Assembly: GCA_049644665.1 (NCBI GenBank)
Contig: JBARSI010000155.1
Coordinates: 4,888-68,887, forward strand
DNA: 64,000 nt
From: Anaerolineales bacterium
GTDB lineage: Bacteria > Chloroflexota > Anaerolineae > Anaerolineales > E44-bin32
Reading direction: 5' to 3'
Below, piece by piece: positions 31,001 through 41,411 of the stretch (its first letter is position 1; every line of letters begins with the position of its first letter). The notes beneath the pieces were generated by a model. The model did no database searches. It had not been told where the DNA came from and saw only the letters and a list, made by a program, of their open reading frames with translations. The position numbers and the translations under genes are program-made.

Positions 31001-31039
31001 CTTTTAGGGAGGTGGAGTTAATTGTTAAGGGGAAGCAGG

Positions 31040-31726
31040 ATGAAAGAGCTGCATGAGTTCGCCGAGAGCGAAGAGATGTATTTGAAGACAATTGCCGAGA
31101 TTTCTCGTCATGGAAATCTTGTTCCGGTTACAAATATCGCTGACCGGCTTCGTATCTCGACCGTTTCCGCAAGCGAAATGGTACACCGCCTGCAGGATCG
31201 CGGTTTGCTTGAGCACACACCATACAAGGGTGTGAGGCTGACGGCTGATGGCCGGGATCGGGCGAATGGCATACTGCGCCGACACCGCTTATGGGAATGC
31301 TTTTTGATGGAACACCTCGAGCTTCCTTGGAATCTGGTACACGATCTTGCCTGCAAATTAGAGCATGTTAGCGAGGATGTGTTGACGGATGCATTGGATG
31401 AGTTCCTTGGCCTCCCTTCTTTTTGCCCACATGGCAACCCCATCCCGCCCTCCCGTGGTGTCCTTGAAATTAGGGCGGCAACGCCGCTTTCTGATCTCGA
31501 TGTTGGACAGGAGGGAGTCGTCCTGTGTATCCGCGAGGAGGAAACTGAGATATTGAAGTATCTTGATGCTCGCACAGTCCGACCCGGAAGCCGGGTTCGA
31601 ATCGAGGAGATAGCACCGTATGATGGACCTCGCTCGGTCTTGGTGGGAGGAGAAAAGCAGGTTCTGGGCCGTGAGGTAGCAGAGCATATTCTCGTCGAGT
31701 TAGTGCACGAAAATGAAACGGAGTGA
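31040..31726 (+). CDS. DtxR/IdeR-family metal-dependent repressor with a C-terminal SH3/FeoA-like domain (Fe-type ligand set)
   Basis: The strings EEMYLKTIAEIS, RRHRLWECFL and VHDLACKLEHVS correspond to DtxR M10, H79, E83, H98, C102, E105 and H106. Confidence 0.8.
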   Translation: MKELHEFAESEEMYLKTIAEISRHGNLVPVTNIADRLRISTVSASEMVHRLQDRGLLEHTPYKGVRLTADGRDRANGILRRHRLWECFLMEHLELPWNLVHDLACKLEHVSEDVLTDALDEFLGLPSFCPHGNPIPPSRGVLEIRAATPLSDLDVGQEGVVLCIREEETEILKYLDARTVRPGSRVRIEEIAPYDGPRSVLVGGEKQVLGREVAEHILVELVHENETE

Positions 31727-31729
31727 CTT

Positions 31730-32149
31730 TTGAGCCCAGACACAGAACGCGAATATAAAATCAGACTTCTCGGCGATGTGCCATCTGGTGGTCGCGTGCG
31801 CATGGTTGGGTTTGCGCGCCATGGCAGGAGATCTCGGCGCCTGGCAGAAATGGGAATTAACCCTGGTACTGAAATCACGGTTATTCAGGCGGATCCCGGG
31901 CAACCGCTGTTGCTGAGGGTGCGCGGATCACAGTTGGCGATTGATCGCATGGTAGCTAATCATTTACTCGTCGTCCCTCTGGAGGCGATGCCTAAATTGT
32001 TACATGGGTGGAGGGGCTGGCACCGCCGCGGCCGCGGGGGTGGTCCAAGAGGGCGCGGGTGGAGAAGCGGCCGACCTCGAAGGGGGAGAAATAAAGCATT
32101 CCATGATGTTGCCCCGCTGCGAGCCGATAGAGATGAAGATGAAGCGTAA
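31730..32149 (+). CDS. feoA: FeoA-domain protein with a 55-aa Arg/Gly-rich C-terminal tail
   Basis: TTG start. FeoA fold string VRMVGFARHGRRSRRLAEMGINPGTEITVIQADPGQPLLLRVRGSQLAIDRMVANHLLV. There is no stop until 32149. Confidence 0.65.
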   Translation: MSPDTEREYKIRLLGDVPSGGRVRMVGFARHGRRSRRLAEMGINPGTEITVIQADPGQPLLLRVRGSQLAIDRMVANHLLVVPLEAMPKLLHGWRGWHRRGRGGGPRGRGWRSGRPRRGRNKAFHDVAPLRADRDEDEA

Positions 32150-32681
32150 TGCGGATCTAATAATTGCTTTGGCCGGCAACCCAAATGCCGGAAAAACCAC
32201 GGTATTTAATCGACTCACCGGCTCGCGGCAGCATACCGGGAACTGGCCCGGAAAAACGATTGAACGGAAAAGCGGGCGATACAAGCACGCCGGCTTGTCG
32301 ATAGAGGTCGTTGACCTTCCGGGGACGTACAGTCTGGCGGCGTATTCCGAAGAGGAGATTGTGGCGCGCGATTTTCTACTTGAGGGACAATCGGACGCCG
32401 TTGTGGTCGTGGTAGACGCCTCAAATCTTGAGCGAAACTTATATCTTGTAGTGCAGATCCTTGAGTTGCAGCTTCCAGTCCTCGTAGCTTTGAACATGAC
32501 GGATATGGCAGAGATGATTGGTTTCGAGATTGATGTCGAAAAAATGTCAGATGGGCTGGGCGGTGTCCCGGTGATCCGAATGGCAGCCGCTCGCGGGATG
32601 GGGATTGAAGAATTGAAAGAAGCGATACTCCTTTACACGAAAGAACAAGTCATAAACCCTTCGCCGGACCCGATTGTATGA
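32133..32681 (+). CDS. feoB: FeoB N-terminal GTPase domain as a stand-alone ORF
   Basis: G1 is GNPNAGKT, G3 is DLPG and G4 is NMTD. Ends with an ATGA overlap onto the next ORF. The start is ambiguous (32103, 32133 or 32139). Confidence 0.8.
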   Translation: MKMKRNADLIIALAGNPNAGKTTVFNRLTGSRQHTGNWPGKTIERKSGRYKHAGLSIEVVDLPGTYSLAAYSEEEIVARDFLLEGQSDAVVVVVDASNLERNLYLVVQILELQLPVLVALNMTDMAEMIGFEIDVEKMSDGLGGVPVIRMAAARGMGIEELKEAILLYTKEQVINPSPDPIV

Positions 32682-34378
32682 CGAACCCTGACTCCAAACC
32701 TGCTTTTCAGATCGATTATGGACTTGTGATCGAGCCTGAAATTGAGAAACTGAGAGCGCTCATTGAAGAGCGCTTCGTGCTCCCGGATCAAATTAAATCG
32801 CGCTGGCTTGCTGTAAAGGCGCTTGAAGGGGAGACAGATCTTCTCGAGCACTTTCTCGGTGTCGAAGATGCCCGTGTTGTACTCGCACAGGTTCATACGA
32901 TCCGCAAGCGGCTCGAGGCGCAGATCCCCGAAGGGCTGGAGATTGCCATTGCTGACGGCCGCTATGAGCGTGTGGGTAGGATTGTGGAACATTCACTTAC
33001 GCGCCCTAAGGAACCTGCCCACTCGCGCGCAGAGCAGGCAGACCGGATTGTCACTCATCCGTGGTTGGGAATCCCGATATTTATGGTCGTGATGTATCTG
33101 GTCTTCAGCCTGGTTGTGAACGTATCAGAGCCGTACCTGGAGTGGATCGACGCGGTTATTTCGGGGCCGATTTCAAGCTGGGCAGGAGCTTTGCTTTCTC
33201 TAATTGGTGCCTCCACCTGGTTGCGTGGGTTAATCCTGGATGGCGCGATTGCGGGCGTCGGTGGTGTTCTGATTTTTGTCCCAGGTCTCGTGGTTTTGTT
33301 TGCTTTCATCGGTCTACTAGAGGATAGCGGGTATTTGGCCCGTATAGCGTTTGTGATGAATCGCTTCCTCGCATTCTTGGGCCTAAACGGTAAGAGCTTT
33401 GTGCCATTAATTCTTGGCTTTGGCTGTGCGGTCCCAGGGATTTATGCCACGCGAACGCTGGAGGGACGCCGTGACCGTTTACTCACGGCGTTGCTGGTGC
33501 CGTTGATGTCGTGCTCGGCGCGGCTTCCTGTGTATGTTGTGTTTGGGATGGCTTTCTTCGGCCGAAGCGCGGATCGGGTCATATGGGGTTTATACGCGCT
33601 CGGAATTGCAATGGCGGTCTTGTTGGGTTTTCTATACTCGCGCACGTTGCTTCGATCTTCTGAAGAGATGGCTTTCCTGATGGAGTTGCCCTCTTATCGC
33701 CTGCCAAGAGTGAGCAATTTGTGGATCCATGTCTCGCTGAGGACGGGCGAATTTCTGCGCAACGCAGGGACATTAATCCTGGCTGCATCTCTGGCTGTAT
33801 GGCTGCTTCTGAACGTTCCGCCTAAAGCTACAGAATTAGAGCAGAGCGCATTTGGGAAAGTCAGCGGTTTTGTCGCCCCCGTGCTGAAACCAACGGGTTT
33901 TGGGACCTGGGAGGCTTCAGGATCGCTATTAACAGGCATGGTCGCCAAAGAGCTTGTGATCGCGACGATGACACAGATCTATCTGGATGAGCCCGGAGAG
34001 AGCGAAGCAGAAAGTGAGATCGATCCGTTTCAGGACCTGGTAGATATTGGAAGGGGCTTTGTCGGGGCTACTATTCGCGCAGGGGAGCGGTTATTGGACA
34101 CCCTCACTCCCGGGGTCCAACTCTTTGGAGGCGAAGGCGAGAGAGAAGAAGAGGGTACGGCACTCAGTTTTGTATTACACGAGTCCTTCACCCCTCTTTC
34201 CGCTCTGGCGTTCATCGTATTCGTCTCGCTTTACACGCCCTGCATGGCCACGCTGGGGGCCATCCGCGCGGAATTCGGTGGGTGGTGGGCGGTCTTTTCC
34301 GCGGTAAGCCAGACCGGGATGGCCTGGCTTGTAGCGACGCTTATTTTTCAACTGGGCCATTTGTTAGGTTTTTCCTAA
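32678..34378 (+). CDS. feoB: FeoB helical (GDI-like) domain plus membrane domain
   Basis: About 10 helices with the Gate motifs GFGCAVPGIYATRTL and LYTPCMATLGAI. Confidence 0.85.
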   Translation: MTNPDSKPAFQIDYGLVIEPEIEKLRALIEERFVLPDQIKSRWLAVKALEGETDLLEHFLGVEDARVVLAQVHTIRKRLEAQIPEGLEIAIADGRYERVGRIVEHSLTRPKEPAHSRAEQADRIVTHPWLGIPIFMVVMYLVFSLVVNVSEPYLEWIDAVISGPISSWAGALLSLIGASTWLRGLILDGAIAGVGGVLIFVPGLVVLFAFIGLLEDSGYLARIAFVMNRFLAFLGLNGKSFVPLILGFGCAVPGIYATRTLEGRRDRLLTALLVPLMSCSARLPVYVVFGMAFFGRSADRVIWGLYALGIAMAVLLGFLYSRTLLRSSEEMAFLMELPSYRLPRVSNLWIHVSLRTGEFLRNAGTLILAASLAVWLLLNVPPKATELEQSAFGKVSGFVAPVLKPTGFGTWEASGSLLTGMVAKELVIATMTQIYLDEPGESEAESEIDPFQDLVDIGRGFVGATIRAGERLLDTLTPGVQLFGGEGEREEEGTALSFVLHESFTPLSALAFIVFVSLYTPCMATLGAIRAEFGGWWAVFSAVSQTGMAWLVATLIFQLGHLLGFS

Positions 34379-34398
34379 GCGAGGAACAGAAAGAATCT

Positions 34399-34698
34399 AT
34401 GCTGGCACAAATCCTGGCGGAATTTGATCGCGAACGAAGCCCTCTATCGAGCCGTGAGTTGGCAAGTGTGCTCGGCAAAGACCTCGCAGCAATTGAGGGA
34501 ATGCTTGAAACGCTGGTGAGGTCAGGACGGTTGGTGGAACTGGGGAATGATGGACCCTGTGATAAATGTCCAGCACAAGGTCTTTGTATTGTTCTCCCAC
34601 TTGAGGGGCGCCGATTTTACCTTGTGCCGCACGAAGGGACGGAGATCCTCGAAGAACACGGATATTGTTGGGAAGCAAGAGATCGAGGAAGGGCATAG
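34399..34698 (+). CDS. feoC: FeoC-like small winged-helix protein with a Cys cluster
   Basis: MLAQILAEFDRERSPLSSRELASVLGKDLAAIEGMLETLVRSGRLV followed by GPCDKCPAQGLC. SD gaggaaca lies upstream of ATG 34399. Confidence 0.6.
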   Translation: MLAQILAEFDRERSPLSSRELASVLGKDLAAIEGMLETLVRSGRLVELGNDGPCDKCPAQGLCIVLPLEGRRFYLVPHEGTEILEEHGYCWEARDRGRA

Positions 34699-35459
34699 TG
34701 AACCTGTATTCTTGGAACGTTAACGGCATACGCGCGGCCCAGAAGAAGGGATTCTTGGAATGGGTGACCAAGACGCGCCCTGATGTGATTTGCCTCCAGG
34801 AGACAAAGGCGCAACCCGAGCAACTGGATCAAACTTTGCTCGAGCCAGAGGGCTACAAATCTTATTGGGCATCGGCAGAACGCAAAGGGTACAGCGGGGT
34901 CGCTCTGTATACCCGAATTGAACCGATGAGTGTGCAGGTGGGCCTTAGGATAGAGGAGTTCGACCGCGAGGGCCGAACCATCCTGGCAGATTACGATGAT
35001 TTTGTCCTGCTGACGACCTATGTTCCTAACGGCTCCCGCGACCACAGTCGGGTTCCTTTCAAAATGGCATATAAAAAGGCGCTGCTCGATACTTGCAACG
35101 CCCTGCGATCCGAAGGCCGCAGCGTAATATTCTGTGGTGATATCAACACGGCTCATCGCGAGATAGACCTGGCGCGCCCCAAACAGAACCAGAAATCGAC
35201 CGGCTTCCTCCCCGTCGAGAGGGAGTGGATCGATGCCGTCGTCGAACAAGGCTACATCGACACCTTCCGCGAACAGCACCCCGAGCGTGCCGCGTATAGC
35301 TGGTGGGCTTATTGGGGCGGAGCGCGCGAGCGCGATGTGGGTTGGCGGCTGGACTACTTCTTCGTCACCGCGGATCTCGCAGAAAATATTATCTCCGCTG
35401 AAATACATCTTGACGTCCTTGGCTCGGATCATTGCCCGGTCAGCCTGACGCTCCGTTGA
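34698..35459 (+). CDS. xth: Exodeoxyribonuclease III
   Basis: Contains NVNGIRA, CLQETK, GDINTAHREIDL and SDHCPV. GTG 34698 overlaps the feoC stop by 1 nt and follows GAGGAAGGG. Confidence 0.9.
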   Translation: MNLYSWNVNGIRAAQKKGFLEWVTKTRPDVICLQETKAQPEQLDQTLLEPEGYKSYWASAERKGYSGVALYTRIEPMSVQVGLRIEEFDREGRTILADYDDFVLLTTYVPNGSRDHSRVPFKMAYKKALLDTCNALRSEGRSVIFCGDINTAHREIDLARPKQNQKSTGFLPVEREWIDAVVEQGYIDTFREQHPERAAYSWWAYWGGARERDVGWRLDYFFVTADLAENIISAEIHLDVLGSDHCPVSLTLR

Positions 35460-35534
35460 TGTACGATCTGGGTTAAACGGTCTTCTCCCTCGATCGAGTT
35501 ACCCCTTATTCCCCAAAATAGATTGCACCCGCTC

Positions 35535-35586
35535 TTGACAGACGCACACTTTAATGCAAGATAGTAGTTAGTAGACGAACTACTAT
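35535..35586 (+). promoter_or_regulatory. Candidate promoter (TTGACA -35) with a perfect 9-bp inverted repeat, ATAGTAGTT-N8-AACTACTAT, over the -10/TSS region
   Basis: TTGACA lies at ~35535-35540. The dyad lies at ~35561-35586, 17 nt upstream of the trmB-like ATG. Confidence 0.45.
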
Positions 35587-35602
35587 TCTGGGCGAGGCGG
35601 AT

Positions 35603-36406
35603 ATGGATCTGGTTGCTGAGTTAAATAGCATTGGTTTTACAGAATCTGAGGCGAAGGTGTACCTCGTATTGCTGCGCAACAACCCGGCCACGGGCTATCA
35701 ATTAAGTAAAGTGTCTGGTGTGCCGCGCTCGATGGTGTATGAGGCCCTCGGCCGCCTTGACGCGCGTGGTGCAGTGTTGAAATCTGCCGAGGCGAAAGCC
35801 ACGCTCTATCGTCCCCTCCCTCCGGAGGCCTTGTTAGAGAGCGTGAACATGGAGCACCACAGAAAGATGCAGTCGCTTTCAGGCGGCCTCTCTCGCATCT
35901 ATGAAACCGGATCGGGGGATCTTCTCTGGACGATTACGGGAGAGACTTCAGCGATCTCCTATGCCGCCGATATGATTCAATCGGCACAGACCGAGTTAAT
36001 GCTTGTGCTCTCTGACCCGGGGTTGATGGAACTTCAAGATGTGGTGCAGGTTGCATGCGATCGCGGTGTTCGCGTAAGTGCTTTGCTCACGGGCGACCTT
36101 AAGTTGGGGTGCGGAGAGGTGGCGTACCACCCGCCGCATGAGAGTGAGCTGCAGGAATTAACCGACACCATTGTTGTGGTGGCAGATGAGCAGGAAGCTT
36201 TGATTGCCAGCGGGAACGAAGAGATGAGCGCCACGGTCACAACCAATCGCAACCTGGTCTTGATCGCCCGCCAATTTGTCTGGATGGAATTGTTTGCTCA
36301 GCGAATCTACTCTCGCCTTGATAAGGATTTGATTGCCAAATTAAACCCAGAGGACCAAAAGCTAATTAATGGATTCGCACCAGTGATGGGAAAGCGGGTG
36401 GGCTGA
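35603..36406 (+). CDS. TrmB-family transcriptional regulator
   Basis: N-terminal HTH LNSIGFTESEAKVYLVLLRNNPATGYQLSKVSGVPRSMVYEALGRLDARGAV, plus a TrmB-type C-terminal domain. Confidence 0.8.
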   Translation: MDLVAELNSIGFTESEAKVYLVLLRNNPATGYQLSKVSGVPRSMVYEALGRLDARGAVLKSAEAKATLYRPLPPEALLESVNMEHHRKMQSLSGGLSRIYETGSGDLLWTITGETSAISYAADMIQSAQTELMLVLSDPGLMELQDVVQVACDRGVRVSALLTGDLKLGCGEVAYHPPHESELQELTDTIVVVADEQEALIASGNEEMSATVTTNRNLVLIARQFVWMELFAQRIYSRLDKDLIAKLNPEDQKLINGFAPVMGKRVG

Positions 36407-36407
36407 A

Positions 36408-37157
36408 ATGGAAGCATCCCTATTAAATGCCTTCTGGGCGGCAGTGATCACCACGTTGGCGACGGGGCTTGGCGGGTTGCCCTTCGTCTTTATGCGCCGT
36501 TTTCCTGCCCGGCTTGCTCACTTGGCATGGGCAGTCGCCGGCGGGATGATGCTTGCGGCGTCTGTTTTTAACCTGATCTTCCCCGGGATCGAGGATGGTG
36601 GATTCAACATCGTAGCCGTCGGCATGCTCGCTGGAGCCCTGATCTTCGGCCTGGCCTCGCGGCGGATAGCGCACCACGATTTTACAATAAGCGGGGTGAG
36701 CGGCGCGGGAGGGAATCGCATCGCTCTGGTTCTTGGGACAATGTTCTTCCACAGCTTTCCCGAAGGCCTGGCGGTAGGCGTAGCTTTCGGATCGGGGGAA
36801 ACCCACCTGGGCATAATCATCACTATCGCCATCGCAATTCACAACATACCCGAGGGAATTGCGGTCTCACTGCCGCTGCGCGCCGAGGGGGTCAGCGGCT
36901 GGAAGTGTGTCGGCTGGTCAATATTCTCGAGCTTGCCTCAGCCGATAGCGGTGATTCCAGCCTACCTGGCCGTGGTTGCATTTCGACCGATTCTTCCCTT
37001 CGCCTTTGGTTTCGCAGCCGGGGCGATGTTCTTTCTCGTCCTCAGCGAGATGATCCCGGAGAGCCTGGCCAGCGATGTGCAGCGGCAAACGAGCGCGCTG
37101 GCAGCAATGGGCGGATTCATCGCCATGATGCTCTTTCAGAACGTATTCATTATGTGA
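36408..37157 (+). CDS. zupT: ZIP-family divalent metal transporter (ZupT-like)
   Basis: Contains HSFPEGLAVG and HNIPEGIAV, with 8 helices. Starts 1 nt after the regulator's stop. Confidence 0.85.
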   Translation: MEASLLNAFWAAVITTLATGLGGLPFVFMRRFPARLAHLAWAVAGGMMLAASVFNLIFPGIEDGGFNIVAVGMLAGALIFGLASRRIAHHDFTISGVSGAGGNRIALVLGTMFFHSFPEGLAVGVAFGSGETHLGIIITIAIAIHNIPEGIAVSLPLRAEGVSGWKCVGWSIFSSLPQPIAVIPAYLAVVAFRPILPFAFGFAAGAMFFLVLSEMIPESLASDVQRQTSALAAMGGFIAMMLFQNVFIM

Positions 37158-37170
37158 TCCTGTCCTCCTC

Positions 37171-37200
37171 TTGTAATTTAGTTTCAACTAATATTATAAT
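37171..37200 (+). promoter_or_regulatory. Sigma-70-type promoter (TTGTAA-N18-TATAAT) with the inverted repeat TTAGTT-tc-AACTAA in the spacer
   Basis: The repeat sits at ~37178-37191, between the -35 (37171-76) and the -10 (37195-200). The leader to ATG 37357 is about 150 nt. Confidence 0.5.
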
Positions 37201-37356
37201 AAGGCCATACTTAATTCTCGAATTGGTTGATCCGCTTCACCATGTTGAGAATCTCCACAGGACCACCCGCGCTCAGGGCGTTAAGGGGCACGGAGGGATT
37301 CTTACAGGGGTTGGCCACGAGGCAGGGAATGTGTTCCGAAAGGAAACGAGAGCGGT

Positions 37357-38367
37357 ATGAGTGATTCGTTAATAACACTGTTAATTGGACTTGGCATGCT
37401 ATCTATCGGCCTGTGGTTTCTTTGGCCGGAGGACGGTCTTTTTGCGCGCTGGCAGCGGGGGCGAAAGATGAACGCCCGCATCCGCCGCGAGGACGCATTG
37501 AAACACATCCACAGCTGTGATATGGGCGGATCACCGGCATCGATCCAGAGCATTGCCGGCGCATTAGGAGTCCACCTCAACGAGGCGTTAGCTACACTAT
37601 CTGAGCTTGAAGCGCATAATTTGGCACTTATAAGCAACGGCGGTATCCGCTTGACGCCCGCAGGTCGTGAGTCGGCGCTGTATATTTTACGGGCACATCG
37701 CATGTGGGAGCGATACCTGGCAGATGAGACTGGATACAGCGAACAGGAATGGCATGATATCGCCGAGCGTTATGAACACGAACTGACACCCTCTGAGGTT
37801 GAAGCGCTCTCAGCGCGCTTGGGGTATCCCACACATGATCCACACGGGGACCCCATACCCGCGGCAGATGGTGAGATTGTCCATCATGGTGGTGAGCCGC
37901 TCACCGCAGCCGAGGTTGATGTCCCCCTGCGCATCGTACACCTTGAGGATGAGCCGGACGTGGTCTACGCTCAGCTCGTCGCCGAAGGGTTGCACCCAGG
38001 CATGATTCTGCGTCTCGTCGAACGAACGCCCGAGCGGCTGCGCTTCTGGGCCGGGGGTGACGAACACACCCTGGCTCCAGTGGTCGCGGCGAATATCTCT
38101 GTCTTGGCTCTTGCCATGGCGGAGGCTGAGGAACCCGTCGGCAAGCCGTTGAGCCACTTACAGTCCGGCGAATCAGCTGTTGTCCTATCGATTTCACCGG
38201 CAAGTCGTGGTCTGGATCGTCAACGGTTGCTCGACTTGGGCCTGTTGCCGGGAACCAAAGTGGGCGTCGAGTTGGTTGGTCCGGGTGGAGATCCGAAAGC
38301 CTACCGGATACGAGGAGCGCTGATCGCTCTGCGACAAGACCAGGCCAATCGCATATTGGTTGAATGA
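37357..38367 (+). CDS. DtxR-family regulator (Mn-type ligand set) with an N-terminal hydrophobic helix, an SH3-like domain and a terminal FeoA domain
   Basis: LITLLIGLGMLSIGLWFLW is followed by RWQRGRK. The ligand strings are REDALKHIH, RAHRMWERYL and WHDIAERYEHELT. C-terminal FeoA string: SGESAVVLSISPASRGLDRQRLLDLGLLPGTKVGVELVGPGGDPKAYRIRGALIALRQDQANRILV. Confidence 0.75.
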   Translation: MSDSLITLLIGLGMLSIGLWFLWPEDGLFARWQRGRKMNARIRREDALKHIHSCDMGGSPASIQSIAGALGVHLNEALATLSELEAHNLALISNGGIRLTPAGRESALYILRAHRMWERYLADETGYSEQEWHDIAERYEHELTPSEVEALSARLGYPTHDPHGDPIPAADGEIVHHGGEPLTAAEVDVPLRIVHLEDEPDVVYAQLVAEGLHPGMILRLVERTPERLRFWAGGDEHTLAPVVAANISVLALAMAEAEEPVGKPLSHLQSGESAVVLSISPASRGLDRQRLLDLGLLPGTKVGVELVGPGGDPKAYRIRGALIALRQDQANRILVE

Positions 38368-38379
38368 GGAGTGAGTGGG

Positions 38380-39222
38380 ATGGTAGATAAGAAAAAGAAT
38401 GCTCCGCTGGACGAATGTGCAAGCTGCCCAGTACATAATGCTGCAAACCTATTGAAGCTGGGTGTCGACATGCAGGATTGGGATTATGTCGTCGCACTGG
38501 CGGGTAATCCCAATACCGGAAAAAGTACCGTGTTTAATGCCCTCACAGGTCTACACCAGCACACAGGCAATTGGCCTGGGAAGACTGTCACCCGGGCCGA
38601 AGGTGGCTTTGAGTACGCCGATCGGCGCTTTAAATTAGTGGACCTTCCCGGCACATATTCGCTGTTATCGATCTCGCTCGATGAGGAGATCGCCCGGGAT
38701 TTCATCCTCTTTGGTCAACCGGACGTCACCGTGGTGGTTGTGGACGCAACTCGATTGGAGCGGAATCTGAACCTGGTGATCCAGGTATTGGAGATTACCG
38801 ATCGGGCTGTCATCTGTCTGAATTTAATGGACGAGGCTCACCGCCACGGGTTGGTGGTGGATGAACGCAGCCTTTCACGCGATCTGGGTGTTCCTGTTGT
38901 GCCCACATCGGCGCGTTATGACAAGGGACTGGATGAATTGGTTGCAACGATTAGTAACGTCGCTTCCGGTAAGTTCGCATACCGTCCGCACAGAATCCAG
39001 GCAGTCTCGCGCGCGCTGGAAAGCTCTATCAAGACCCTAACCAAAGAAGTGAGAACGGTCTACCCGGATCTACCAAATCCCCGTTGGGTGGCGATGCGCC
39101 TCCTCGATGGAGATGAACGAATCATCGAGGCAATAATCAAGGGCGAATTGGGTGACCTGAGACAAGCGGACGATGAAATCTCGGGCGCGGACATGGGGCA
39201 GATGCAGGAGGCAGTTTCGTGA
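38380..39222 (+). CDS. FeoB-paralogue GTPase domain plus part of the helical domain, as a stand-alone ORF
   Basis: Contains [13 protein letters not shown] and NLMD. GAGGAG lies 8 nt upstream of ATG 38380. Ends in a GTGA overlap with the next ORF. Confidence 0.8.
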
Positions 39223-40658
39223 GCGGGAAGCGAGCGGCATCTCCCGAGAAACTCTTGAAGTCTGCCCAGGCACTCCGCTGGGAGGTGGGCAGCAACGTGC
39301 ATGAGGCGCTCACCGAGGCCATATACACTGACGCGGCGAGCATTGCCGATCGAGCCGTGAGACGCTCTGATGTGAGTCCGAAGTTTGATCTCGATCGGAC
39401 GATTGACAAGATCGTGACTCACCGGTTCTGGGGATTCCCGGTCATGATCCTGCTCTTCGCTCTCGTCTTCTGGATCACCATCACCGGGGCGAATGTTCCC
39501 TCTGGTTGGCTCGCCTCTCTGCTGCTTGGAAAAGGGCATCCCTGGTTGTCGGAAGTCGCCTTGTTGCTAGGCTTCCCGCTCTGGTTGAAAGGGCTGCTGA
39601 TTGACGGGATGTACCTTGCAACAGCCTGGGTTATTAGCGTGATGCTGCCACCGATGGCGATCTTCTTCCCGCTTTTCACCCTATTAGAGGACTTCGGGTA
39701 CTTGCCGCGCGTTGCTTTCAACTTGGATAACGCTTTTAAGAAATCCGGCGCTCATGGCAAACAGGCGCTCAGCATGATGATGGGCTTCGGCTGCAACGCC
39801 GCCGGTGTGATCGCAACGCGCATAATCGATAGTCCGCGCGAAAGGCTCATCGCCATCATCACCAATAACTTCGCACTCTGCAACGGCCGATGGCCGACCC
39901 AGATCCTTTTAGCGACGATCTTTATCGGCGCCCTGGTTCCCGCTCAACTCGCAGGGATCATCTCCTCCCTCGCGGTAGTTGGGATAGCCGTTTTGGGAGT
40001 CTTATTAACTTTCCTTGCCAACTTGATACTCTCGCGCACGATGCTCCGCGGGCAGCCATCCAGTTTCAGCATGGAACTTCCGCCATATCGGCCGCCGCGA
40101 ATCTTGCAGACGATCTATACCTCGCTCATAGATCGAACAATCTATGTGCTTTGGCGGGCAATCGTGTTTGCGATGCCGGCGGGCGCTGTAATCTGGTTGA
40201 GCGCGAATATCACCGTCAGTGGAGTGACACTAGCCGAGCACCTCGTTCGCTTCCTCAACCCCGCGGGCATCCTCTTAGGATTGAATGGGGTGATTTTACT
40301 GGCTTATGTCGTTGCCATCCCGGCGAATGAAATCGTCATTCCAACGATCTTGATGTTGACTGTTTTGATGACCGGCGCTTCGGGTTTTGATGCTGGGGAA
40401 GGGGTTATGTTTGAGCTTGACTCGAATGCGAGTACTTTGGCCCTGCTTCAGGCAGGAGGTTGGACATTGCTGACGGCGGTAAATTTGATGTTGTTCAGCC
40501 TGGTGCACAACCCCTGCAGTACGACAATCTACACGATCTATAAAGAAACCGGAAGTTTGAAATGGACCACCGTGGCGACGATTATGCCCGTTATATTAGG
40601 TGTTCTGATGACATTCTTTGTGGCTCAGATATGGCGGGTTGTGGCTGGTTTTCTGTGA
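39219..40658 (+). CDS. FeoB-paralogue membrane domain
   Basis: Contains [15 protein letters not shown] and [12 protein letters not shown]. About 10 helices. Confidence 0.8.
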
Positions 40659-40736
40659 TCGTATCTACGACGTGGTTGTTTGTGCCACATGTTAGTTGAC
40701 CGATCCCGAATCAGAGCGGACGAGCGGAGTTAGATT

Positions 40737-41411
40737 ATGCGCGAACAGCTAACGCATGCACACGAGGACTATCTTAAGGCCATCTATAAGTTATCGGCCA
40801 TAGGCGGGCGAGCCACGACGACGGAGCTTGCCAAGCTATTAAACGTCACCCCAGCCTCGGTCACCGGAATGGTACAGAGACTGGCGAGCGACGATCCCTC
40901 TTGGGTCGATTATCAGAAACACCGTGGGGTCTCGCTAACTCCGCAAGGAGAACGTGCGGCGCTGGAGATCATCCGCCATCATCGTTTGATAGAGATGTTC
41001 TTGCATGAGATCCTTGGTTACCCATGGGAAGAAGTACATGATGAAGCGGAACGACTGGAGCATGTGATCTCTGAGAAATTTGAGGAGCGGATCGCCAAGG
41101 TATTGGGTGACCCCACTCACGACCCTCATGGGGACCCCATCCCCACGCGCGATCTAAAAATCCCTCCAGCATGTGATATGCGCTTGAGTGATTTGCGCCC
41201 GGATCAACAGGCAATGGTCATGAGGGTGCACGATTCAGACTCTGATTTTCTACGACACCTTGCCGGGTTGGGACTGAAGCCGGAGACGAAGCTATCAATT
41301 CTGGAGCATTCCCCTTTCGACGATAACCTGAAGATTCAAGTCAACGGTCAGCCTGAGCCGATAATACTGGGGAGAAAGATCACACAGCAAGTTTTTGTAG
41401 ATATCATCTAG
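40737..41411 (+). CDS. DtxR/MntR-family repressor with an SH3/FeoA-like C-terminal domain (Mn-type ligand set)
   Basis: Contains HEDYLKAIYKLS (Asp at the DtxR M10 position), RHHRLIEMFL and VHDEAERLEHVIS (Glu at the C102 position). Confidence 0.8.
   Translation: MREQLTHAHEDYLKAIYKLSAIGGRATTTELAKLLNVTPASVTGMVQRLASDDPSWVDYQKHRGVSLTPQGERAALEIIRHHRLIEMFLHEILGYPWEEVHDEAERLEHVISEKFEERIAKVLGDPTHDPHGDPIPTRDLKIPPACDMRLSDLRPDQQAMVMRVHDSDSDFLRHLAGLGLKPETKLSILEHSPFDDNLKIQVNGQPEPIILGRKITQQVFVDII

Follow-up and report, generated by a model that had tools for sequence, protein, structure and literature searches.

The 64,000-nucleotide (nt) stretch of the Anaerolineales bacterium contig JBARSI010000155.1 analyzed here (the window) contains two Feo-type iron transport loci, system 1 (31022-34698) and system 2 (37357-41411), in each of which FeoB is distributed over two adjacent open reading frames (ORFs). 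The upstream ORF of each pair (G1 or G2) specifies the GTP-binding G domain, and the downstream ORF (M1 or M2) specifies the membrane part. The features that define the two pairs, with lengths in amino acids (aa), are as follows.

32139..32681, + strand: G1, a stand-alone FeoB G-domain subunit of 180 aa (Pfam FeoB_N alone, E=2.6e-63)
32678..32681, + strand: ATGA stop/start overlap between G1 and M1 (direct reading)
32678..34378, + strand: M1, a 566-aa membrane subunit that also carries the helical (GDI/S) domain (Pfam FeoB_Cyto 14-107, Gate, FeoB_C, Gate)
38380..39222, + strand: G2, 280 aa, comprising the G domain and the initial three helices of the helical domain (Pfam FeoB_N, E=1.5e-60; FeoB_Cyto positions 4-46/90)
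39206..39222, + strand: GTGA stop/start overlap of G2 with M2 (39219-39222), preceded by a Shine-Dalgarno site, AGGAGG (39206-39211) (direct reading)
39219..40658, + strand: M2, a 479-aa membrane subunit that begins with the final helix or helices of the helical domain (Pfam Gate, FeoB_C, Gate)

The ORF listing, direct reading, and Pfam searches agree on this division, which an earlier note, made from the letters of the window alone, had also described: a twofold separation into G-domain and membrane ORFs, with the system 1 break directly after the G domain and the first ORF of system 2 carrying part of the helical domain. A single polypeptide is found for FeoB in neither system, each having two ORFs, as is the case in relatives too, and no third FeoB copy was detected within the window. 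The G domain (PF02421) is present on both G1 and G2. The helical domain (PF17910) lies whole on M1 and is shared in system 2 between G2 and the N terminus of M2. With canonical FeoB (E. coli; PRK09554/TIGR00437), the two systems share the domain order of G, GDI/S, and two Gate domains with FeoB_C, the gate cysteines, and the linkage of the genes to feoA, feoC, and an iron-responsive regulator. They differ from it in that the chain is cut, at PRK09554 positions ~170/173 in system 1 and ~212/223 in system 2, and in that system 2 adds an N-terminal CxxCPxH extension. On this NCBIfam model, G1 covers positions 3-170 and M1 covers 173-714, and G2 covers 5-212 and M2 continues from 223, with both ORF pairs tiling FeoB models such that nothing is lost and nothing is duplicated. 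Against the TIGR00437 cutoff of 315.65 bits, M1 scores above (357.5), and G1 (216.4), G2 (210.4), and M2 (173.4; model positions 235-594) each score below, with the summed pairs exceeding it.

The break in system 2 had been placed about 100 residues later than that in system 1. Both the PRK09554 coverage and the alignment of the membrane subunits, in which residue 12 of M2 is matched to residue 68 of M1, bring this offset down to ~45-55 FeoB positions. G2 also has ~35 conserved aa added at its N terminus and ~20 aa of disordered tail, which account for the rest of the ~100-aa difference in length between G2 and G1.

The GTPase motifs of G1 read GNPNAGKT, GKTI, DLPG, and NMTD, and the motifs G1 to G4 of this GTPase class are also present in G2. 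The gate cysteines occur as GFGC and YTPC in M1 and as GFGC and HNPC in M2. In the window, the GTPase motif residues and gate cysteines are intact, and the alignments show no variation in the motif residues. At their boundaries, G1 ends in PSPDPIV with its TGA stop at 32679-32681, and M1 begins at ATG 32678 with the peptide MTNPDSKPAFQIDYG. The G2 frame is open from GTG 38371 and closes with TGA at 39220-39222. The two systems are, by sequence, old paralogues from different FeoB subfamilies; the identity between them is 51% in the G domain and 26% in the membrane part.

Break sites and gene junctions

For comparison with relatives, one genome per GTDB species was scanned, and the closest 80 G-domain loci (designated with L numbers) were classified by their ORF structure. 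In an alignment of the junctions, all breaks map to two sites. Site 1 is the linker between the G and helical domains, ahead of the conserved start of the helical domain, xD-YGxxxExEI. Site 2 is a variable-length loop within the helical domain, past the helix with the motif RWxAxKLLExD, and the length of this loop also varies in fused proteins. An AlphaFold2 model of G2 (predicted local distance difference test score [pLDDT] of 74) places the G domain at residues 36-196, followed by helices at 211-227, 234-242, and 246-254, with residues 260-280 disordered. G2 aligns with residues 5-227 of 271 of the Pyrococcus furiosus NFeoB structure 3k53 (E=8.5e-53). A PDB sequence search with M1 returned zero matching chains, and hence no solved structure of the membrane domain was seen for the family onto which the membrane part could be mapped. 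The two recurrent break sites would mark structurally permissive positions of the chain.

The ATGA of the system 1 junction is kept in L089, L090, L009, L031, L046, and L064 and is replaced by GTGA in L018, with L011 showing another short overlap and L001, L003, L012, and L034 showing spacers. At the system 2 junction, the AGGAGG sits 7 nt 5' of the M2 start codon GTG at 39219, and a GTGA or ATGA overlap is kept in L006, L007, L089, and L090. Across the relatives as a whole, the genes overlap by 4, 8, 10, or 13 nt or are separated by spacers of 2 to 53 nt, several of which carry a GGAGG-type site before the second start, implying separate cistrons every time. The two 4-nt overlaps of the window suggest coupled translation of the paired genes. 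The earlier note had called the overlaps typical of such coupling; as a general feature it does not hold, since relatives with spacers show that overlap coupling is dispensable. An indel of 1 nt at an ATGA-type overlap suffices to fuse or separate the genes, which makes frequent switching between the fused and split states mechanistically easy; an equal argument has been made by Gomez-Garzon et al. for feoA-feoB of Vibrio cholerae (PMC8749426). Scans for promoters and terminators gave counts no higher than the shuffled expectation, and operon boundaries were therefore not drawn from them.

Distribution, conservation, and history of the split form

The survey of FeoB architecture in relatives, which the earlier note had suggested as a check, revealed that both split types recur across Chloroflexota, with type 2 also present in other phyla. 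Type 1 consists of a G-only protein of ~170-195 aa followed by a ~560-aa FeoB_Cyto/Gate/FeoB_C/Gate protein. It comprises system 1 of the window and L001-L005, L009, L011, L012, L018, L031, L034, L046, L064, L089, and L090, drawn from Anaerolineales, Anaerolinea, "Candidatus Villigracilis," Chloroflexus, "Chloroflexia," and Dehalococcoidia. Type 2 consists of a ~260-290-aa protein with the G domain and half of the helical domain, followed by a ~465-485-aa membrane protein. It comprises system 2 of the window and L006, L007, L071, L078, L087, L089, and L090, from Chloroflexota, Calditrichaceae, Ignavibacteriales, Hydrogenedentota, and Syntrophaceticus (Bacillota). In a third subfamily, L017 (Dehalococcoidales) has a break at the type 2 site. 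Split FeoBs thus appear to be old and widespread, with type 1 extending across classes of Chloroflexota and type 2 across at least four phyla. Fused kin are also known for both: those of the system 1 type, with membrane parts 41-48% identical, are found in Chloroflexota, and those of the system 2 type, with membrane parts 63-65% identical, in Gemmatimonadota and Verrucomicrobia.

The gene neighborhoods recur along with the breaks. The system 1 order of DtxR-FeoA, FeoA, a G protein of ~175 aa, a membrane protein of ~560 aa, and FeoC is seen again in Chloroflexota and Dehalococcoidia, and the system 2 order of DtxR_C-FeoA, a G protein of ~280 aa, a membrane protein of ~478 aa, and DtxR-FeoA is seen again in Chloroflexota. 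Two independent metagenome-assembled genomes (MAGs), L089 (from NCBI) and L090 (from ENA), contain both split systems in synteny, with both overlaps kept. A survey of homologue lengths, made for three of the four ORFs (M1 was left out), found the best 120 homologues to fall without exception within 166-297 aa for G1, 263-319 aa for G2, and 457-492 aa, lacking a G domain, for M2. In a HMMER search of the whole library with G1, the nearest 50%-identity cluster representatives ranged from 145 to 849 aa, many of them fragments at contig ends, and length in that set is accordingly no separator of true G-only proteins; this search also turned up fused FeoBs, 743-751 aa long, whose G domains share 62-64% identity with G1. 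Breaks are shared by independent assemblies from Chloroflexota, Dehalococcoidia, Chloroflexus, Calditrichaceae, Hydrogenedentota, and Syntrophaceticus. The split G ORF of Syntrophaceticus was found on 135 contigs, and the split G protein of Chloroflexus has a RefSeq WP accession; WP_318777926.1 exemplifies the RefSeq entries for such carriers.

Selection on the four ORFs was gauged against L089 and L090, as synonymous sites are saturated relative to the more distant split relatives. At a synonymous divergence (dS) of ~0.45-0.6, the ratio of nonsynonymous to synonymous divergence (dN/dS) lies between 0.06 and 0.16, i.e., 0.14-0.16 for G1, 0.13 for M1, 0.10-0.11 for G2, and 0.06-0.12 for M2. Further, among split loci, the pairwise distances of the G parts correlate with those of the membrane parts (r=0.86; 0 of 1,000 permutations as high), pointing to the two genes evolving as one unit.

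In a bootstrapped neighbor-joining tree of 81 concatenated sequences (with L084 excluded and L019 included as type 1), systems 1 and 2 are placed in two different clades, both with a bootstrap value of 100% and both made up of fused and split members. Fitch parsimony requires at least eight changes between the fused and split states among the 81 taxa: three fissions in the system 2 clade; in the system 1 clade, either four fissions or three re-fusions that follow a split root; and one further change of state in L017. The number and direction of these events are uncertain because the tree is a simple neighbor-joining tree (p-distance-type corrections) with 55-80% support at several relevant nodes. 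In the system 1 clade, the split state may be ancestral, with re-fusions having come later. The independence of the two architectures of the window, as judged from these clades and break sites, is robust. The two independent fissions of the earlier note hold up insofar as the clades and sites differ; its attribution of them to this lineage does not, as the architectures are old and widespread.

Proposed reassembly of the subunits and competing explanations

We consider it very likely that both loci encode genuine two-subunit FeoB ferrous-iron transporters, in which a soluble GTPase and a membrane subunit reassemble non-covalently. We propose that the G and membrane subunits, having been translated separately, would rejoin as the equivalent of single-chain FeoB. 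As system 1 is cut in the linker between the G and helical domains, G1 should dock on the helical domain of M1 through the contact that NFeoB makes within one chain. In system 2, G2 would supply three helices and M2 the last one or ones, the two together completing the helical bundle. The genes would be co-transcribed and, in this genome, translationally linked through their 4-nt stop/start overlaps, with FeoA domains, DtxR-type regulators, and, in system 1, FeoC being encoded alongside. That the non-covalent assembly is functional is a reasonable inference based on the purifying selection, the intact motifs, the strict adjacency of the genes, and the co-evolution of the halves. Physical association of the halves, their GTP-dependent regulation in trans, and the identity of the substrate as Fe2+ are likewise inferred. 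On a longer timescale, the two architectures would have arisen separately in two old FeoB subfamilies, with FeoB toggling between fused and split forms at the two permissive sites.

Several observations weigh against this proposal or the data behind it. The junction alignment reveals no docking peptide conserved among the variable G tails, and the single-chain AlphaFold2 model of M2 was poor (mean pLDDT of 47) and was not used. At the system 1 junction, the Shine-Dalgarno-like sequence is weak. The comparison sequences are mostly MAG derived, and two loci from nanopore MAGs, L019 (4534-4724) and L084 (4729-6158), show extra frame breaks within the helical or membrane part that are probably assembly indels, making single loci from such MAGs unreliable for fused/split calls. 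To these must be added the uncertainty of the event counts given above.

Such nanopore loci, with their frameshifts inside feoB, lend some color to the idea that sequencing or assembly errors divide feoB genes that are truly single, as does the fact that a 1-nt indel would close either junction of the window. We nevertheless regard its chance of being correct as negligible: the same breaks recur in dozens of assemblies made independently by different projects with different technologies; the best 120 homologues of G1, G2, and M2 are equally truncated; the junction structure is retained at a dS of ~0.5; and one G ORF is repeated on 135 contigs. Moreover, some relatives have spacers of 27-53 nt between the genes, with stops and, in a part of the cases, a Shine-Dalgarno-like site ahead of the second gene, and a single-base indel cannot close such a distance. 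The view of the earlier note that the breaks are not artefacts is thus borne out by the shared breaks, the spacers, and the low dN/dS. The same low values, 0.06-0.16 in all four ORFs, together with the invariant catalytic and gate motifs, the lack of internal stops, and the conservation of the architecture over classes and phyla, render it barely credible that the split genes are decaying pseudogenes of a formerly intact feoB, even though the presence of two Feo systems within a 10-kb island could relax selection through redundancy. A real transporter could also be restored by programmed -1 frameshifting or stop-codon bypass, yielding full-length FeoB and leaving the G-only product as a by-product or regulator. 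The downstream ORF does lie in the -1 frame at both overlaps, as a -1 frameshift requires; however, no slippery heptamer precedes either stop (CCG ATT GTA TGA and GCA GTT TCG TGA), system 2 has a canonical AGGAGG and a GTG for initiation of its own, and the spacers and the differing overlap lengths and frames of the relatives mean that there is no common recoding signal, making such recoding improbable in the extreme.

The remaining alternatives accept the split and differ over its origin or its consequence. The split state might be that of the ancestral, prefusion FeoB, a G protein plus a Gate-domain permease, rather than a secondary fission. In its favor, the basal branch of the Chloroflexota system 1 clade (Dehalococcoidia, L003) is split, and parsimony reconstructs the split root with three re-fusions for this clade. 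Against this, the outgroup clades and the root of the tree all reconstruct as fused (within the limits of a midpoint-rooted neighbor-joining tree), the splits of the system 2 type are nested within fused lineages, and a break inside a folded domain, as in system 2, is not expected of two originally independent proteins; we hence see this origin as unlikely. Alternatively, after fission, the G subunit might have become an independent soluble GTPase with another role, leaving the membrane subunit as a G-less permease. The lack of a conserved docking motif in the G tails would fit such a divorce, but we find it very unlikely, given that the two genes invariably lie next to each other on one strand, mostly with an overlap, that the divergences of their halves are tightly correlated, and that the subunits of system 2, each with an incomplete helical domain, are structurally sensible only when joined. 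On sequence grounds, then, the preferred reading of a two-subunit transporter makes split FeoB a real, conserved, functional-looking natural variant of a known transporter that is not private to this lineage.

A parallel to such an arrangement is provided by ABC importers, in which the nucleotide-binding and transmembrane domains are encoded by separate genes, the soluble NTPase subunit docks on the membrane subunit, and fused and unfused versions coexist. Their fold and mechanism are different, and the parallel is one of analogy only, not homology. One possibility, albeit a doubtful one, is that the covalent tether between GTPase and pore is dispensable, having been repeatedly broken and re-made, and that the G subunit is a dissociable regulator that binds according to its nucleotide state. 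This recalls the "living fossil" idea reportedly put forward by Hantke, of a prokaryotic G-protein/effector pair. If so, the stoichiometry might be variable, or there might be cross-talk between the co-resident systems 1 and 2. More generally, how GTP binding and hydrolysis control the passage of Fe2+ through FeoB, and whether it is a gated channel or an active transporter, is a long-standing question, for which split FeoBs offer matched soluble and membrane partners, which evolution would have tuned to act in trans and which can be separately purified, titrated, mutated, and compared with close fused relatives.

Among known Feo variants, the natural G subunits resemble the crystallized NFeoB constructs (P. 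furiosus 3k53, Methanocaldococcus jannaschii 2wjg, Thermotoga maritima 3a1s); those are laboratory truncations of fused FeoB, whereas the subunits described here are genomic, with that of system 2 ending inside the helical domain. The FeoA-FeoB fusion of the Bacteroides fragilis type (Sestok et al. 2022, PMC8980893) is likewise a natural rearrangement at a Feo domain boundary in which linking or unlinking is tolerated, with fusion there and fission here. The same study considered FeoA-NFeoB architectures lacking the transmembrane part to be possible sequencing errors; in contrast, the G proteins here that lack transmembrane segments are conserved and have an adjacent membrane partner. In the split feo operon of Helicobacter (Gomez-Garzon and Payne 2023, PMC10353542), the Feo system is also divided, with function retained there, but it is feoA and feoB that lie apart and FeoB is whole, whereas here FeoB itself is divided and its pieces are adjacent. 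Our full-text literature searches found no description of a split FeoB, though an earlier mention in subscription-journal reviews outside their reach is possible, and an evolutionary survey of Feo does not mention one. The pieces already bear database names such as "FeoB small GTPase domain-containing protein," "nucleoside recognition domain-containing protein," and "ferrous iron transporter B," with proteins identical to G1 and G2 being on record under the first of these. For annotation, G-only and membrane-only names of this kind would denote halves of one transporter and not truncations or errors to be discarded.

Accessory genes and the surrounding island

Both systems are flanked by a FeoA ORF or by regulators with FeoA domains, as are their relatives. 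The accessory genes are as follows.

31022..31726, + strand: DtxR-family metalloregulator with a C-terminal FeoA/SH3-like domain, opening system 1 (Pfam Fe_dep_repress, Fe_dep_repr_C, FeoA)
31730..32149, + strand: FeoA, 139 aa, with the domain at residues 14-82 and an Arg/Gly-rich tail after it (Pfam FeoA)
34399..34698, + strand: FeoC-like winged-helix protein with the motif CDKCPAQGLC, closing system 1 (Pfam FeoC, E=7.8e-07)
37357..38367, + strand: 336-aa protein with an N-terminal hydrophobic helix, a DtxR-like dimerization domain, and a C-terminal FeoA domain (Pfam Fe_dep_repr_C, FeoA)
40737..41411, + strand: DtxR-family regulator with a C-terminal FeoA domain, 3' of system 2 (Pfam)

The DtxR gene that opens system 1 also lies 5' of split FeoB in L001-L005, L089, and L090. 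The tail of the neighboring FeoA (~55 aa, 31985-32149) is rich in Arg and Gly and ends in DRDEDEA, and both L089 and L090 conserve it in an open frame. The 3' end of this gene overlaps the start of G1, which is most likely the ATG at 32139 or 32133 and not the one at 32004, by 11-17 nt. The possibility of a coding 5' extension of G1 from 32004 was ruled out, in that homologues begin with MK/MR-RN and L090 has a stop there; some gene callers nonetheless use this frame, which overlaps the FeoA tail, to lengthen G1 to 192-239 aa. At the other end of system 1, the FeoC gene has counterparts at the equivalent position in L001, L003-L005, and L090. FeoC is found mostly in Gammaproteobacteria according to a published survey (PMC8749426); here, FeoC genes lie 3' of split FeoB in relatives from Chloroflexota and Dehalococcoidia.

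In system 2, the sole FeoA domain directly 5' of the FeoB pair is that of the 336-aa protein, which is kept at 336-344 aa in L006, L007, L089, and L090. Its hydrophobic helix is MSDSLITLLIGLGMLSIGLWFLWP, and it matches an NCBIfam MntR-like model at positions 45-250; no helix-turn-helix domain was found in it by the Pfam search. As system 2 has no stand-alone FeoA, this possibly membrane-anchored DtxR-FeoA hybrid may take its place. The regulator 3' of system 2 is conserved in position in L007, L089, and L090.

The N terminus of G2 (38380-38490) is a conserved extension of ~35 aa ahead of the G domain with the motif CxxCPxH, in which C13, C16, P17, and H19 do not vary; an "NLLKLGVDM" helix comes next. 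The same extension occurs in L006, L007, L078, L084, L052, and L076. Within this subclade, it is borne by split members (Chloroflexota, Calditrichaceae, and Ignavibacteriales) and fused members (Haloferula and one from Gemmatimonadota) and is missing in those from Bacillota. It may serve the GTPase as a metal-binding knuckle.

The two systems belong to a metal-homeostasis island (31022-41411) with three DtxR-family proteins with FeoA/SH3-like C termini (31022-31726, 37357-38367, and 40737-41411). Between the Feo systems lie a TrmB-like regulator (35603-36406) and a ZIP transporter (36408-37157). The gene order of the island is largely kept in L090; in L089, the ZIP gene and both split systems are retained, with other genes occupying the place of TrmB. 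In the syntenic upstream region of both genomes, an ArsP_1-family permease is specified by a pair of neighboring ORFs (178 and 161 aa; L089, 3431-4449; L090, 3352-4370), and this pair may represent another split membrane protein.

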